Below are positions 11,301-59,899 of a stretch of 64,000 bases of DNA, piece after piece. The notes below the pieces were generated by a model. It did no database searches and was not told the DNA's origin. It saw only the letters and a list, made by a program, of their open reading frames with translations. The stretch comes from Phycisphaerae bacterium (GTDB lineage: Bacteria > Planctomycetota > Phycisphaerae > UBA1845), in NCBI GenBank assembly GCA_963666835.2, contig CAXXGO010000006.1, positions 896,001 through 960,000 on the forward strand, read 5' to 3'. The translations under genes were made by a program, and so were the position numbers. Positions within the stretch are counted from its first letter, which is position 1. Each line of letters begins with the position of its first letter.

Positions 11301-12329
11301 GGGTCTGACGATCTCGCGGCACGGGTTGAGGAGCTTGGCCGGGAGTTGGCGCGCAACAGAGACGACGCCACGCGCCAAGACACCATGCAGCGGCAGGCGG
11401 AGCACCTGGCCGCGCAGATCGAATCAGCCCGCCGACAGGCGGAGGAGTCGGCCCAGACGATCGCGACGCTGTTCAAAGAGGCCGACGTTGTTGATGAAGA
11501 TACATTTCGCAAGTACGGCCGGTTGTACGCCGAGCGGGTCGGCCTGGGCGACGCGATCGAGCAGGCGAAGTCCACCATTCGCGGAATCTCCGGCGAGATG
11601 GACCTGGAGCTTCTGAAGACGAAGCTGGCGGAGACCTCCCGGGAGCAACTTGACGTGCGGCAGGGCGAGGTCCTTGGGGAGGTTGAGGAACTCGAGAAGC
11701 GGTCGCACGACCTGCGCGATACGAAGGCGGAACTGACGAACAGAATCGAGGCCATGAGGACCGCCGACACGGTTTCGCGGCTACGGGCGGACCGGGAGCG
11801 AGTTCTCGCGGAGATTCGCCCGCTGGCACTGCAGTGGACCCGCTACGCTCTTGCCGAAATGTTATTGGACCGGGCGGGCAAGCGATTCGAGAAAGAGCAA
11901 CAACCCCGAGTAGTACGTGACGCGGCCGAGTTCTTCGGCAGAATGACCGGTGGGAAGTACGAGAGGGTCGTTGCCCCAGTAGGTGCTGATACGTTCGAAG
12001 TTGTGACCGCCGCGGACGCCGAGCGCCGGACCCCCGACCAGCTCAGCCGTGGAACGACGGAACAGCTCTATCTGGCGCTGCGTTTTGGATATATCCGCCT
12101 GCGTGCCGCCGATCACGAGCGGCTTCCCATCGTAATGGACGATATTCTGGTGAACTTCGACCCGCAGCGCGCCACCAGGGCCGCCGCGGCGATTCTCGAA
12201 CTGGCGCGGGAGCACCAGGTTCTGTTTTTCACCTGCCACCCCGAGACGGTCGCCCGGTTCCGGCGCGAAGACCCCACCCTTCCGCTCTACCGGCTCCGCG
12301 AATCCTCGCTGACCGTCGAAACTCCGTGA
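8382..12329 (+). CDS. SMC/Rad50-like ATPase (YhaN-like) with a central TM hairpin
   Basis: GDNEAGKST Walker A, long coiled coil, LSRGTTEQLYLALR signature, MDDILVNFD Walker B and FTCH. ATGA overlap with the nuclease gene. Confidence 0.9.
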   Translation: MRITALHINSFGIFRGMSLPDVPPGLVLIQGDNEAGKSTLLWFIRGILFGYPDGRSRDPGYRLGDGETHGGRLEIVTDHDIPYTIARRGVRGGGEVTITDSAGGSGSLHDLLGGTTAQLYRNIYAFSLSELHTIDSLQADGVKGAIYGAASGTALMALPQARKIISDKLDDTFKSRGQKQQINIRLAELDAINESLRETSKDIDRYNEACTQLTKTEAELGELLSRMRDSRIESGRIDTLLKVWPEWVKLQDCEENLRNLPLVVESFPEDGLGRLETANQVLLQNRERLRELVEEHAILRRDIADLNVDPDVLAAGETISVLTESRAGYLAARADLPLKRQAHASVDAEIAELRRRLGPGWTEEEIRTSDCSVSAREAIRRHDQGLTVAGEELARAEQDAAAREETHKQTVADEQRARKKVEQFADSDAVDEQLVRRLQTKRELFREAATDLPQVQADLNTARARVLQNVREIDARWTVENVANFDVSVAAQQKIQDFADRLEITKQDRDKAESLRIAAVELLRAGREQRDAVQEELEQLPEGFDRDELTRRLAAISALEGALRERTENAREIRFSEARLGDKRQELTRLKLQSPASNKVPRWVPFPALLIAAAAPVAGWALGQLPEAGGVSALFAVVAVLCFAWRRRTEARSAGAQKAHTAAVEELSREIRNLESELAVLAEGEVAREEKIDKHARAAALSAKADAEEISTARESIEHDLDVLKSRDRLEADLRKRNEEVQRLTDKLAETDRVLQAHADEMAGVKDDWRNHQQHLGLAPESAVQTVQLIFTKVAAVRDQIAGLEELEKRIARMSTGRDSYLDLARQAPPLAPYCEGPPADLLSAVDRFLEEVQRQQDNMKERALAQRNLAEVGRRVMAASDALKQAREALDTAARRQTTAQTAWQEWLTQRGFDGDMSPPTALDTLKLIEDGVRMLRERDQLDDVIARLDAETAGYEQTAAAVFEKLNRSVPGSDDLAARVEELGRELARNRDDATRQDTMQRQAEHLAAQIESARRQAEESAQTIATLFKEADVVDEDTFRKYGRLYAERVGLGDAIEQAKSTIRGISGEMDLELLKTKLAETSREQLDVRQGEVLGEVEELEKRSHDLRDTKAELTNRIEAMRTADTVSRLRADRERVLAEIRPLALQWTRYALAEMLLDRAGKRFEKEQQPRVVRDAAEFFGRMTGGKYERVVAPVGADTFEVVTAADAERRTPDQLSRGTTEQLYLALRFGYIRLRAADHERLPIVMDDILVNFDPQRATRAAAAILELAREHQVLFFTCHPETVARFRREDPTLPLYRLRESSLTVETP

Positions 12330-12432
12330 CAGTCAGTCAACATGCGACATGTGCGGTGGGGGAATCTCCACGTGCAACGCCCGGGACCGACCACCCTTCC
12401 ATGCCACCGGCAAACCAATGTAGCGCTAGGGC

Positions 12433-12461
12433 TTGACTCGGGCTGCCCGATCCGATAGGAT
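12433..12461 (+). promoter_or_regulatory. Sigma-70-type promoter
   Basis: TTGACT-N17-TAGGAT upstream of the 12489 ORF. Confidence 0.65.
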
Positions 12462-12466
12462 GGGGG

Positions 12467-12481
12467 TGTTACGATGTAATA
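12467..12481. promoter_or_regulatory. Zur/Fur-family-like operator
   Basis: TGTTACGATGTAATA is a near-palindrome with TGTTA-N5-TAACA geometry and overlaps the predicted +1. Confidence 0.5.
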
Positions 12482-12488
12482 TTCCACG

Positions 12489-12815
12489 ATGCGGGTGGAA
12501 CCTAGGGTGATTCGATCGGTTCTGACAATCTCGTTTGGGGCGATGTTGACTGTGGTGGCCAGCGGATGGCCGGCGGCGTCTCATCTGCAGGCTTGCCACG
12601 AGCATCACAGAGAAGGGTCTCATCACGACTCGGACCGTTGCATTGTTTGCCAGACGTTGGTGGCGGCGTCCCAAGGCCTGCAGGTCGCTCCGGCCGCGGA
12701 TATGCTCGAGGTCGCTTATTCCGTTGATGATCATCAACCACCGTCCACTCGGATTCGAGGGCCGGTCGAGTTCCGATCGGCGACTCCCCGCGCCCCCCCT
12801 GAATTCGTTTCCTAG
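12489..12815 (+). CDS. DUF2946-like leader protein (signal/TM, His-rich, CxxC, C-terminal RAPP arrest motif)
   Basis: Hydrophobic N-terminus, CHEHHREGSHHDSDRCIVC, and a C-terminus ending TPRAPPEFVS. Confidence 0.75.
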   Translation: MRVEPRVIRSVLTISFGAMLTVVASGWPAASHLQACHEHHREGSHHDSDRCIVCQTLVAASQGLQVAPAADMLEVAYSVDDHQPPSTRIRGPVEFRSATPRAPPEFVS

Positions 12816-12981
12816 AACATTGTTGAGTTTGCGGTTCGACGTTGTGGGTGTTCGCGGCGCAGTTATGCGCTGACCATAGCGCGCCGGGTAAATCAAACCG
12901 TGCATAGTTCGCGGTAACCGTTCGGTGCGCGAGTAACTTGGAGTACGCGCCGGGTTCAACGCCCGGTGAATGGAGGGTGCA

Positions 12982-13893
12982 ATGATCAAACGACCGATCT
13001 TGGTGATTCTTACGGTGTTGTTGTTTGTCGGGTCTGCGCTGCAGGGACGGGCTCGGGGCGAAACGTGGGGAACTGCGACGTCGCTTTCATCCCAGGACAG
13101 TAGTGCCTGCCCGTTGGCACATACCCATATCGGCAAGAACCCGACATGGAGGCCGGATTGGAGTGACCCCGGCAACTCGGCCGGCGCCACCGATCCGGAC
13201 CCGACCGATGACAACAAACTGTGGTTGTTCTCGATTCCGCCGGTGCATGCGGTTGCGCCTACCCCGGGCTGGCCGAACTGGGGAGAAGAGAACAGTACCC
13301 CGTTCTTGCTACTATCGCCCGCGACTAATCCGAACGGCGATCCGATCTACAAGCCGGGAGACTCGTCGCAGATACTGTACGAAAGTTCTTTCATGTACAG
13401 CGCCGTCGACGGATACGACGATCCGAACGGGGTACTTCATATTGACGGATGGCACTCGGCCCACGGCCCGCAGGGGGCTTGGAACCTCGAGAGCGTCGAC
13501 CAGGCAACCGAGCCGTCGTGGGACATCCGTCTGGTGCGCGAGAGTGTAAGCCTTGCGCAAGATGACTTCTTCATGGCCTTGCCGAATGGCACGACCGTTC
13601 TGACCGCCGACGGTGACGAGTACGCTCTGCAAAAGAGGTGGCTCGATGACTTCTCTGCATGGGGCATGCACGAGCACATGAGCTTCAACTTCTGGCTCGC
13701 CGCTGATGGAAGCGACCTGGGGAGTGAGGTTGTCGCGACGTTCAGCGCCTACGACGCTGGTGGCATGTACACCCCATCGGATGCGTTTGACTTCCGCTTC
13801 AGGGTCGTACCCGAACCTGTGACTCTGAGCATGTTGATGCTCGGCGGGGTCGGGCTGGTCATCCACCGTCGCACCAGGATGAGTCACGTATGA
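12982..13893 (+). CDS. His-rich PEP-CTERM surface protein
   Basis: Signal peptide; CPLAHTH, WHSAH and MHEHM motifs; C-terminal VPEP + TM + RRTR. GGAGG precedes ATG 12982. Confidence 0.85.
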
Positions 13894-13993
13894 CAAAGGT
13901 CTGACGGTCGGCGCGGAGGGTGCGGTCTGCCGGACCCTCCCGCGCCGACCTCGGACGATACTCGCTAAGCGGAAACACGAAAGGAGGCCCGCC

Positions 13994-14728
13994 GTGAGAA
14001 GGACAAAGGCGTTTACGCTGATCGAACTTCTTGTCGTTGTTGCCATCATCGCCCTGCTGATCGCCATGCTGTTGCCGTCGCTGCAGAGAGCTCGGGCGCA
14101 AACCAAGACCATGAGGTGCATGAACAACTGCAAGGAGATCGGACTGGCCGTCGAGCTGTACGGTCAGAACAACTTCGGTCGCTTTCCCCTCAGCGGCGGG
14201 CATGGCGGTGTCGCAGACCCGCAGACCTGGTGGTTCAACGTGTTGGCCCGCGCGGATGTCAATACCTCGCTGCTCTACCGATGTCCAACGGACCCGGCGG
14301 AGAATTTCGTTGACTGGGAGAAGGTGGACTGGGAGGGGGTGGACGACGAGTTCCTCACGAAGCTCCAGGAGAAGCGCTGGGGCAGCTATGCCCTCAACTA
14401 CTTGATGGCCAAGGAGCCCAACCCGTATTGCCACCGCCTTTCGCGAATCAAAAAGCCCACCCACACGATCTTCATCGCTGAGGCGGCGGACACGCTGGCG
14501 GGAGTAGACCACGTGCATCCGGAGCGGTTCCTGCTCATGCCCCCGGAACGCCAGGTGGCCATCGAACGCCACCTCGGCAAGGCCTGCTACCTGTTTGTGG
14601 ACGGGCATGTGGATACCCTGACCCTGGCGGATACCTGGGAGCCGGGAAAGCGGAACCTCTGGGATCCCAAAAACGCGCCCACCTGGAGTGATGATCTGAC
14701 GGCGCCGACACCGCCGCCGAAACCCTGA
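13994..14728 (+). CDS. Prepilin-type N-terminal cleavage / H-X9-DG domain protein (DUF1559-like)
   Basis: [29 protein letters not shown] and [14 protein letters not shown]. Confidence 0.9.
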
Positions 14729-14864
14729 CGTCGTCCGGCAGTCTACTACTAAGTCACACCTGGGTTCTCGGGTGGGCCACCGCTCTTGGGCGGTGCAGGG
14801 ACGGGGCACGGTGCGGAACGTCGAGCGAGACAACATTGCTATTACAACACCTGGAGATGAAACC

Positions 14865-15626
14865 ATGATGCTGCCACACAAGATAGCCGCGGCCACGTCC
14901 CTTATTGTGCTCGTGGCGTTCCAGCCGGTCCGTGCGGACCACGGCTGACCACTTGACCATTTTGCAATTGGTCAATTGCAGGGAAAGCTCTTTGCGGATG
15001 TTGAGGAACTGTACCTCACGCACACGGGGAAGCCGTATCGAAGCCATTACCCACTGAATTACTCGTGGTATCTCAACGCCTACGTAAACGGCGAACCGGG
15101 TTCCGAGCAGATTGAGAATGACCCCGAGCACGAACTAGTAGGAACGCCGGAGACAACGTACGACGTCTGGCTCGATATCGTGGCCCTGTCTCCCAGCCTC
15201 TACGTGTACGTGACAAACGCAGATACCTGGTATTTTGAGGGGGACCGGATTCACCTGAGCAACGTCCCTTATCACCACGTACACGTGGACTACTGGGTGT
15301 TGGCCGCGGACTACGACGAGAATGACCTTATCTACGCCGTCTATAGGTTAGTCGACGAGCAAGACCGGTACGAGCCTTCCGCCGACTTTGCGGTAGTGTT
15401 CAACCGGTCCGTGCCGGGGGACTTTGCATCCGACGGGCATATCGACCTGCAGGACTACGTTCAGATGGCGGCCGCTATGACCGGGCCGGGGACCTCGCAG
15501 CCGGACGCGGAACTTGCAGATGTTGACTACGACGGTGACGACGATGTTGATCTGCGGGATGCTGCTCAGTTCCTGCGCTGTTTCAGTGGCCCGGATGAAC
15601 ATCCTGATCCAAGATGCGCGGAATGA
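14865..15626 (+). CDS. Probable secreted selenoprotein (Sec28) with His motifs and a C-terminal dockerin-like domain
   Basis: GGAG RBS, ATG 14865 and signal peptide MMLPHKIAAATSLIVLVAFQPVRA. An in-frame TGA at 14946-14948 is continuous with ORF 14976-15626. Dockerin-like repeats GDFASDGHIDLQDY and DYDGDDDVDLRD. Confidence 0.75.
14963..14980 (+). promoter_or_regulatory. Bacterial SECIS-like hairpin
   Basis: TGCAATT-GGTC-AATTGCA; the G-first apical loop begins 21 nt after the TGA. Confidence 0.6.
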
Positions 15627-15780
15627 CCGGCGCTGTCGGATTAGGTCTATCGTTCGGGAAGAAGGTGTATCCGGATGGTCCATGGAATTAACGTAGCGCC
15701 GCGGCTTGCCCCTCGTTGTTCTACACATCATTCGACGCATTCACCAACTGCAACCGTTCGATCTTCGATCTCGATTCTCC

Positions 15781-16090
15781 AGCCCGAAGGGCTCAGATGA
15801 AGTAGCCGGGGGCAAGTCCGCCAACGGCGGACGCCGCCCCCGGACCCGATCCCCACAACCTCCCTGACCCCGGTAGGGGTCAAATGCCTTGGGCGAATGC
15901 GTTTCGCGAGGCCGCCATGTCTGTCGACGCATTCTCAATAAGGTCGGATAGCGTCAACAGACGCGCGGTTCATCGACGCCGCCTCTTTCACCCTTCAGGG
16001 TGATTGGGATTGTTGGGCTCCCACCGGGGGCGGCGGCCGCTACGCGGCCTTGCCCCCGGCTACTATCTTGCAGGCTTTCAGCCTGAACAC
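15781..16090. repeat. REP-like hairpin cluster with a 16-bp inverted pair
   Basis: AGTAGCCGGGGGCAAG (15801-15816) and CTTGCCCCCGGCTACT (16049-16064), plus several short GC hairpins. Confidence 0.6.
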
Positions 16091-16223
16091 CGAGCCGGCT
16101 CGACGCCTTTCGCTGAAAAGTAAGCCGCGCCTTGCGGCCTTTCAGGCTGGGGATTGGGTCGCCGCGGAGTCGGACGGATACGCTTCGCTCGCCCGACAGA
16201 GATGTGTAGAACAACGAGGGTCC

Positions 16224-16285
16224 TGTCCCTGGCGCGGAAGCTCGCTGTGTTACGATGACGCCACCCACGAGGGATGGCGTTACAG
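16224..16285 (+). repeat. 62-bp direct repeat, copy 1
   Basis: tgtccctggcgcggaagctcgctgtg...ccacccac...gcgttacag is colinear with 19896-19957. Confidence 0.7.
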
Positions 16286-16613
16286 TGCGTTACGCGCATG
16301 TATGCGAACATCGTGAACAAGCCAAGCGAGTGACCATACTATGGCACTGTACCAGTCCACGGCACGGCGATCGGTGCGGTACGGACCGGACTACGCGGCA
16401 CGGCGACAATCTCCTTTGGTGGATACCCATAACCTCTCCCGTGCGGCAAAGTACTTGAAAAAGGGCGATAATCACGGCTGCCGAATGGCCTCCGGGGCTT
16501 TATGTGCTTCGAGATTGTCCTTTGCCCTGCCTTGCGGGTGCCCGATGAATAGGCGTGCGGGTAAGCCGCGAGTATTCGACACCTTACTCGTCGAACCGAA
16601 GGGAGGCATTGCC

Positions 16614-58357: not shown

Positions 58358-59899
58358 ATGAAGCGGCGTTTTCAGACAAGCGATAGAGCGTTGTCGGTGG
58401 TTGCGTTGGGCGCACTGGTGGTGGCCTTCACCTTTTCACCTGGCGCACAGGCGGCGGAACGGATGGTGATTTGTGAGGAATTCACGAGCGTGAACTGAGG
58501 GGGGTGTAGCAGCGCGGGTACCGCGCTTAACGCCGTTCTGACGGCTCATCCGGACAGCTTCACGTATATTCAGATTCACCTAGACGCCTATTCGACGACC
58601 TGGGGTAACAACCGGGCTAACTTCTACAACATCGAGTACACCCCAACTGCGTGGTTTGACGGATGGTATTCCCTCGTCGGAGATACGCATCTGTACGAGG
58701 GGCGATACACGACCCGCTACAACACGCCGACCGATGTTACAATCGACATCAGCGGAGAGCCGGTAGGCGAAGCGACCTATGAGATTACGGCGAATGTCTG
58801 TATCGAACCCGGCGGCACCGCCAAGACCATGCGGGTGCATGTGGCGCAAGTGCTTGACTACTGGCCGTCCAGCCCATCGTATTCTCGTAACGGGCTCAAG
58901 CAGGCAGCTCCGCAAGCAACGGTCACCGTCGCCCCCGGCGCCTGTGAAGAGGTCGTCAATACGATGACCTTCGATGCGACCAGTTGGACGAACAAAACCG
59001 ACATCAAGATCATCGCCTGGGCTCAAAATACCATGAGTTCCGGACCGTCCGAGGTATACCAGGCCGCCAGGTGGTTCATCCCGATTCCGGGCGATTTCAA
59101 CGGGGATCGCAATGTGGACTCGGAGGACTACGACACGTTTACACTCGATTGCTTCACGGGGCCGGACGGTGGTCCGATCGATCCGGCCTGTACTCCGGGT
59201 GACTTTGACGAAGATGACGACGTTGACTGCGACGATTGGGACCAGTTCGTTCTGGCCTGGACCGCAGGGGGAGATCCACCTGCGTTCGAGACGTGTGTGA
59301 TAGCCTCCCCGGAGCACGCGGCCGGGGAGCATTCTGTCTTGAAGAACCGTTATATCTCGTTCAGTCCGATCGATGCGGGCGGTACGGAAGTCGCCTACCG
59401 GTTGGACACCACCGATAGCACGTTCTTCCCGGATACGGTCGGGACGACCAGGTGGATCGGTGACCCGGATGCGGATAACCTCGCTGGCGTAGAGTCGGAG
59501 CCGATCTACCGCAGTGCCTGGCCGGAAACGGTTCACGTCGGGAGTTGTCACATTGTCCCGGCGTCAGTCTATGCGGTTAGTGCTACAGATGGAGTGGCAA
59601 CGTCTGATCCCCTAGCGCTGTACACGATCATTCAACCCATCCCGAAGAACTGGGGAGATATCGCCGGACCGTTCATCGGTGGCGAGTGGACGGCCCCCAA
59701 CGGCACGGTGAGCATGGACGATGTGATGGCGCTTCTCCAGGTGTTTCAGGCAACCCCCGGTGCTCTCCACATGACCCGTGGTGATTTGCACGATAACGGT
59801 CCTAATCGCGTGGTCAACATGAGCGATGTCATGATTGAAGTGGGTTGCTTCCGCGGCGATCCGTATCCTTACGGTTCGGCGACCGACCCGTGCGAATAG
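58358..59899 (+). CDS. Probable secreted selenoprotein: thioredoxin/Omp28-like domain with UxxC, a dockerin-like domain and a C-terminal domain
   Basis: AGGAG RBS and signal peptide, then VICEEFTSVN-TGA(58496)-GGC and YTPTAWFDG. In frame with ORF 58829-59899, which contains GDFNGDRNVDSED and GDFDEDDDVDCDD. Confidence 0.85.
58511..58527 (+). promoter_or_regulatory. Bacterial SECIS-like hairpin
   Basis: AGCGCG-GGTAC-CGCGCT; the stem begins 12 nt after the TGA and the loop starts with G. Confidence 0.65.

Follow-up and report, generated by a model that had tools for sequence, protein, structure and literature searches.

The window analysed here is a 64,000-nucleotide stretch of the genome of a Phycisphaerae bacterium. 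At positions 14865-15626 of its plus strand lies an open reading frame of 253 residues, provided that its single internal TGA, at codon 28 (14946-14948), is read as selenocysteine (Sec); beyond this TGA the frame remains open until the stop codon at 15624-15626. The Shine-Dalgarno sequence GGAG (14853-14856, plus strand) is found 8 nt upstream of ATG 14865, and residues 1 to 24 (14865-14936, plus strand) look, by eye, like a signal peptide, with cleavage predicted after V-R-A. The TGA stands four residues past this signal peptide, and the putative Sec28 would occupy mature position 4. Full-length homologues have an equivalent leader ahead of the corresponding position, hereafter the C/U column. 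In the standard ORF track, the gene begins at TTG 14976, downstream of the TGA, and the Sec forms appear in databases as leaderless 216-residue hypothetical proteins. An original prediction for this DNA had proposed a ribosome-binding site, ATG 14865 and a signal peptide upstream of the ORF track, with one TGA in between, and all of these are present in the sequence.

Behind the signal-peptide-like residues 1 to 24, the protein is laid out as a family domain (residues 25 to 181) and a dockerin-like tail (residues 184 to 253; 15414-15623, plus strand). This tail gave a match to Pfam PF00404 below the cut-off (E 0.0034), the only, weak, match of the window protein in Pfam, and tblastn found many copies of it across the genome; the window protein thus ends in a dockerin-like rather than a PEP-CTERM tail. 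A search against NCBIfam with E up to 0.1 returned 0 families. The lipobox reads [LVI][ASTVI][GAS]C. A lipoprotein with Cys at +1 was considered and rejected: the C/U column is preceded by D-H-G in the window protein and, in most homologues, by A-D or A-E.

The original prediction held that homologues should show Cys or TGA at this column. In 49 distinct homologous domains from Phycisphaerae, a set from which we excluded a Cys gene with a frameshift, two incomplete genes and distant matches devoid of the motif, we indeed found Cys in 45 and TGA in 4 (G000, G620, G536, and G471). The same TGA was present in three other genera, and the TGA genes of the four genomes, only 38 to 76% identical to the window protein, have kept the leader and the remaining frame intact. 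No further stop was listed within any match of an order-wide search. Among protein homologues (n = 14), Cys occupied the column in 10, and 4 started just downstream of it; the database proteins P0007, P0011, and P0045, which start there, are possibly additional TGA forms. Genome searches placed the family in 24/279 genomes of the order and in 28/401 sampled from the class, and a metagenome scan yielded 2 loci only, both with Cys where read. From these sequences, we infer that the TGA is a site of Sec insertion and that Sec replaced an ancestral Cys. The pairing of Sec with Cys put forward originally was thereby upheld, while the paralogue, offered as evidence for it, was superseded by the orthologues, which serve better.

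With the C/U column left out of the alignment, the resulting tree needed 3 to 4 Cys/TGA changes. On the simplest reading, TGA would have been gained once in the subclade of the window, Cys would have returned in G541, and a separate TGA would have arisen in G471. The G541 gene (L010/L059) is a Cys (TGC) orthologue in which the full SECIS hairpin is retained, and it likely represents a recent reversion from Sec to Cys. The hairpin of G471 is also found in its Cys relatives, and its TGA could therefore be a true stop.

The hairpin TGCAATT-GGTC-AATTGCA, already noted downstream of the TGA in the original prediction, is located at 14963-14980, and its loop begins 21 nt past the TGA. It forms the core of a candidate bacterial SECIS upper stem-loop (14960-14983, plus strand) consisting of 7 Watson-Crick pairs (14963-14980), additional G-U pairs, and the loop GGUC (14970-14973). 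We presume that this loop is comparable to that of the E. coli fdhF SECIS. The consensus bacterial SECIS has a loop of 3 to 9 nt with G first or second and a stem of 4 to 16 bp, 16 to 37 nt from the UGA (PMC13188914), and the geometry of the window hairpin (GGUC, 7 to 10 bp, 21 nt) agrees with it. With the consensus element, the window hairpin shares the GG at the start of the loop, the loop and stem sizes, and a 21-nt spacing within the published range (PMC13188914); distinctive are its AU-rich stem and its energy of -6.8 kcal/mol on a 37-nt fold. A fold of the same length gave -9.5 kcal/mol for G620, and the consensus model has at most -7.5 kcal/mol, for a stretch that need not be 37 nt long (PMC13188914).

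The stability of the window hairpin did not exceed that of shuffled sequences (z = -0.18), and the G620 hairpin was likewise not better than shuffles. When the UGA region was left free to fold, the hairpin was not the minimum-energy structure and a competing pairing won; a ribosome positioned on the UGA would presumably cover bases of this competing pairing. The five hairpin codons are rare (joint frequency in this genome, 2.7e-4), and G000, G620, G536, and the Cys gene of G541 all use the same five. When the window is compared with G536, all five hairpin codons agree, versus 36 of the 82 other comparable codons, and in five other Cys relatives only 0 to 2 hairpin codons match and the hairpin is absent. 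Codon choice would therefore seem to be stronger evidence for a SECIS than folding energy. A search of positions 12200-16400 against Rfam gave no credible match.

A genome lacking the Sec machinery had been named beforehand as a sign of a pseudogene. This genome harbors selA, selB, tRNA-Sec (selC), and two selD genes, one of which has its own TGA, and selA, selB, and tRNA-Sec are each present in G620, G536, and G471 too. Because selA occurs in 236/279 genomes of the order, this co-occurrence is necessary rather than discriminating and only removes an objection. In a rough genome scan, 567 coding-like TGAs passed a loose filter, 107 of them with such a hairpin. The candidates included genes that we take, by eye, to be peroxiredoxin-, SelW-, and DUF1573-like, as well as an Omp28-like gene labeled from its NF045500 match. 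Their hairpin loops mostly start with G-U or G-G, 17 to 24 nt past the TGA, a local pattern that the window gene appears to fit. A strict scan for GGUC tetraloops was rejected as a definition of the selenoproteome, being too narrow. Judged by these sequences, selenoproteins seem abundant in this genome, several of them exported. Other candidates for TGA read-through, with short GU/GG hairpins, were seen in G000 at C6:417380, C6:418527, C7:86323, C1:1243784, C1:294805, C1:1903505, and C1:1170318. The window itself contains a second candidate exported selenoprotein, related to Omp28 (58358-59896, plus strand; TGA at 58496-58498; NF045500 E 2e-13, below cut-off), with a U-G-G-C motif, dockerin-like parts, and a short hairpin 19 nt past the TGA; two other genes of this genome are similar to it.

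The gene at 12970-13893 (plus strand) encodes a PEP-CTERM protein (TIGR02595, above cut-off) with the motifs CPLAHTHIG and H-x-H, proposed at the outset to be a paralogue of the window protein on account of this motif and later shared ones, which are present. Pairwise BLAST between the two window proteins was weak (E 0.002), and paralogy therefore had to be shown by profiles. In hhalign comparisons, the window family matched the paralogue at 96.5% (E 8e-10) and, in a second run, at 97.3%, while a global profile alignment (98.4%) paired both N-terminal motifs. Furthermore, the N-terminal segments of family and paralogue scored 22.4, while none of 40 shuffles scored above 11.0. We conclude from these profiles that the window protein and the PEP-CTERM protein encoded upstream are true paralogues. 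Among 17 paralogue starts, 11 carried Cys, 2 (from two genomes) carried His at the same place, and 4 were of a shorter H-A-H-T-H type; none was a TGA form. Exchange of Cys for His is in keeping with a ligand rather than with a redox thiol. G620 has two paralogue copies (L056:7000-8870), of which one carries a frameshift and the other is interrupted by a stop at a position other than the Cys.

AlphaFold2 modeled the family domain (14937-15407, plus strand) as a beta-sandwich (pLDDT 88, pTM 0.84) of strands and one short helix, with the motif U-P-L-D-H; residue 28 falls on a low-confidence N-terminal segment of the model. Ten positions are invariant in 49/49 domains, namely C/U28, D31, H32, Y50, Y62, P78, G93, H138, H140, and D164, giving a C/U-x-x-D-H motif near the N terminus and an H-x-H motif. 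No other Cys column is conserved in the 49 domains: extra Cys residues are found in 35/49, and a second Cys is absent in 14/49, among them all three TGA genes from the subclade to which the window belongs. We therefore rejected a conserved intramolecular disulfide, there being no conserved second Cys among the 49 domains. With neither a UxxC/CxxU motif in the sequence nor an alpha/beta fold in the model, the protein does not resemble a thioredoxin, in agreement with the original call of a non-thioredoxin selenoprotein. Foldseek returned no match at E 0.001, and the VIA fold search gave generic matches only (best Z 7.4 for the window protein and 6.6 for the paralogue), among them a weak match to the plastocyanin fold (Z 5.9, rmsd 3.5, 94 aligned). 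Queried with proteins other than the Sec form, Atlas produced leads under 0.9 only, one of 0.89 for a Cys orthologue in a cupredoxin-like/MbnP comparison; the four-Cys pattern of MbnP type was found in none of the 49 domains, and a sequence-profile search of the PDB brought nothing useful. Since an unpaired invariant Cys stands among invariant His and Asp residues in an exported protein, we consider that these residues may form a metal site. Related His-rich domains also occur in tandem in large proteins (P0020, P0031; L006-L008), some of which are fused to lipocalin (Blc) domains.

The window gene belongs to a cassette whose gene order, DUF2946-like gene, paralogue, prepilin-type DUF1559 gene, and window-type gene, recurs across the class. 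Its first gene (12489-12815, plus strand) encodes a small His-rich DUF2946-like protein (PF11162 E 0.0039, below cut-off), with similar genes in relatives, and the gene at 13994-14728 (plus strand) encodes a prepilin-type DUF1559 protein; domain and subfamily comparisons assign it to a subfamily that is specific to the cassette and has invariant His residues. In a pattern search, this prepilin gene lay at most 1.3 kb upstream in 26/31 family genes. The subfamily has invariant H-x-H, R-H, and D-x-H motifs, and, judging from these residues, the prepilin-type protein may itself bind metal. Just upstream of the cassette, an imperfect 7-1-7 palindrome (12467-12481, plus strand) is a candidate metal-regulator box: in one relative, 14 of its 15 positions recur ahead of the same gene, and a genome scan gave 41 hits that revealed no zinc regulon, with no conserved box in most relatives. 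Positions 14749-14817 (plus strand) hold one of about 70 dispersed copies of an intergenic repeat that contains a central hairpin; the copies occur on five contigs, and the repeat has no Rfam match.

A Fur-family gene, not resolved to Zur, adjoins the cassette in 12/20 loci (91 selected genes scanned) and in 2/12 other loci; we saw none adjoining the cassettes of the four TGA genomes. ZnuABC and ZIP matches were found near the cassette at one locus each, and one locus (G450) has ZigA together with a true ZepA, the latter two called genes upstream of the cassette. G471 and G705 have MntR/DtxR and FeoAB next to the cassette, G763 has MntR/DtxR there, and G909 has MntP. A TrmO/TsaA-family gene is located near the cassette in four genomes (L057, L058, L063, and L100; L057 and L063 by sequence likeness).

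Taken together, we favor, with a probability of about 60%, an exported selenoprotein in which Sec is a metal ligand for zinc capture at the cell surface. In this scheme, the Sec insertion criteria of the sequence suggest that SelB, bound to the GGUC hairpin, would deliver Sec at UGA28. Cleavage of the leader would then leave D-H-G-U-P-L-D-H at the N terminus of the beta-sandwich, and the dockerin-like tail would probably anchor the protein at the cell surface. The selenolate, D31/H32, and the H138-x-H140 pair would form a metal site, most likely for zinc, in which Sec took over from an ancestral Cys ligand, and the protein, one member of a four-gene cassette for metal starvation, would collect metal extracellularly. 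Selenolates are ionized at neutral pH, are good ligands for soft metals, and are resistant to irreversible oxidation. That this is a new, apparently unlisted selenoprotein family is strongly suggested by the sequences, and it is quite probable that Sec acts as a metal ligand when all metals are considered together; the metal-ligand role advanced in the original prediction is still something that we infer, now with support from the family and its neighborhood.

Could the TGA instead be an error of assembly or sequencing in this genome, as had been contemplated from the start? The genome is 92% complete, and run X1, one of those compared, is possibly its source. Nevertheless, contigs of 4 runs (at most 3 samples and 2 studies; assembled contigs rather than reads) showed no other letter at 14946-14948, contigs of 3 runs bridged the site with at least 31 letters on each side, and the X3 contig kept the TGA despite differing at 3 other sites. 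With the same TGA in three other genera, such an error is hardly conceivable. A nonsense mutation, making the gene a pseudogene or leaving a leaderless product from TTG 14976, would take one change (TGC to TGA), and the damaged cassette of G620, the modest hairpin of the window, and the hairpin of G471 with its possible true stop would all suit it. Against this, leader and frame have been preserved across four such divergent TGA genes, the stop occurs only at the invariant Cys, and the rare hairpin codons have been kept in the TGA lineage, and we therefore regard it as improbable.

The remaining alternatives accept a true selenoprotein. Sec could be the ligand of a metal other than zinc, i.e., Fe, Mn, Ni, Co, or Cu, as the MntR/DtxR, FeoAB, and MntP neighbors, the Fur genes not resolved to Zur, and the weak cupredoxin-like fold matches (Z 5 to 6) would allow. 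We consider this unlikely, though worth keeping in mind, in view of the ZnuABC, ZIP, ZigA, and ZepA neighbors and of the zinc specificity of the nearest characterized relative (PMC10957091). Slightly less plausible still is that the N-terminal Sec/Cys is redox active or forms an intermolecular link with itself, the Cys of the paralogue, or a small thiol. Most bacterial selenoproteins are redox proteins (PMC13188914), residue 28 sits on a segment modeled with low confidence, and many members do have a further Cys in the domain; these points are outweighed by the missing UxxC/CxxU motif and conserved second Cys, the all-beta fold of the model, and the His found in place of Cys in paralogues.

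If surface zinc capture by a Sec ligand is correct, we would tentatively go further and see here the first selenoprotein of nutrient-metal scavenging, with a ZepA-like surface beta-sandwich whose zinc site exchanged its Cys ligand for Sec on two or more occasions within Phycisphaerae and regained Cys once, leaving the SECIS behind. Metal capture would then be tied to selenium supply. The Sec form, the natural Cys orthologues, and the His-bearing paralogues make up a series of Se, S, and N ligands on one scaffold, in which the advantage of Sec over Cys becomes testable as metal affinity instead of catalysis. The family also appears to catch a Sec/Cys switch under way, including a Cys gene that kept its SECIS. 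The family itself is well supported by sequence, and its probable function could be tested by simple biochemistry.

The original prediction did not recognize a described selenoprotein family, and the family was indeed absent from the catalogues compared. The 119-entry family table of PMC13188914 has no such entry, families without a model (CDD and PANTHER ids) being judged by name. The accessible texts on BSepDB (PMC13326102), deep-Sep (PMC12013277), and the SAO system (preprint 10.1101/2022.07.06.499078) do not mention PEP-CTERM or planctomycetes. A literature search with little coverage of subscription journals found no account of the family; supplements or BSepDB entries could hold it.

ZepA is a secreted protein with an Ig-like domain that binds and supplies zinc (PMC10957091). 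The window family shares with the ZepA/All3515 family (NF040463) its presumed export, a predicted beta-sandwich, a His-rich N terminus, and Fur-family/zinc-gene neighborhoods (PMC10957091). Several Cys homologues gave weak but repeated matches to NF040463 over their C-terminal half (best E 1.4e-5; hhalign E 0.003), reaching at most 25 bits against a cut-off of 75 bits, and the window protein had no match. The ZepA zinc motif H-X2-9-H-F/Y-H is missing at the aligned position of the window protein, which has H-V-H in its C-terminal half instead. Because these score and motif tests failed, we propose that the family works like ZepA but is not ZepA. When 251 genomes from across the phylum were searched for NF040463 with E 1e-20 as the limit, no match was found, but the controls were equally without one. 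Unlike ZepA, the window family has a conserved His pair where aligned ZepA has no His, an N-terminal C/U-x-x-D-H, and, in Sec forms, a dockerin-like tail; the window protein combines its leader with this tail, and several Cys homologues have PEP-CTERM. The words "cysteine" and "selenocysteine" have 0 occurrences in the main text of the ZepA paper (PMC10957091).

Closest to home, the Omp28-related selenoprotein candidate (NF045500) of the same window is likewise exported and dockerin tailed, with a short GGU hairpin at 19 nt; it differs from the window protein in its domain and in its U-x-x-C, a motif that the window protein does not have. Metal-binding selenoproteins proposed to date are mostly concerned with heavy-metal handling (PMC13188914). 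SaoB, SaoX, SaoC, MbdU, and the SO_0444 efflux family resemble the window protein in that Sec is proposed as a metal ligand in a transport-linked setting, and SaoC has signal peptides. Published accounts place these proteins among ABC substrate-binding, CU-motif, or membrane proteins that handle heavy metals or organometals. The window protein, which matches no NCBIfam family, would differ from all of them as a predicted beta-sandwich at the cell surface, encoded in a proposed metal-starvation cassette.
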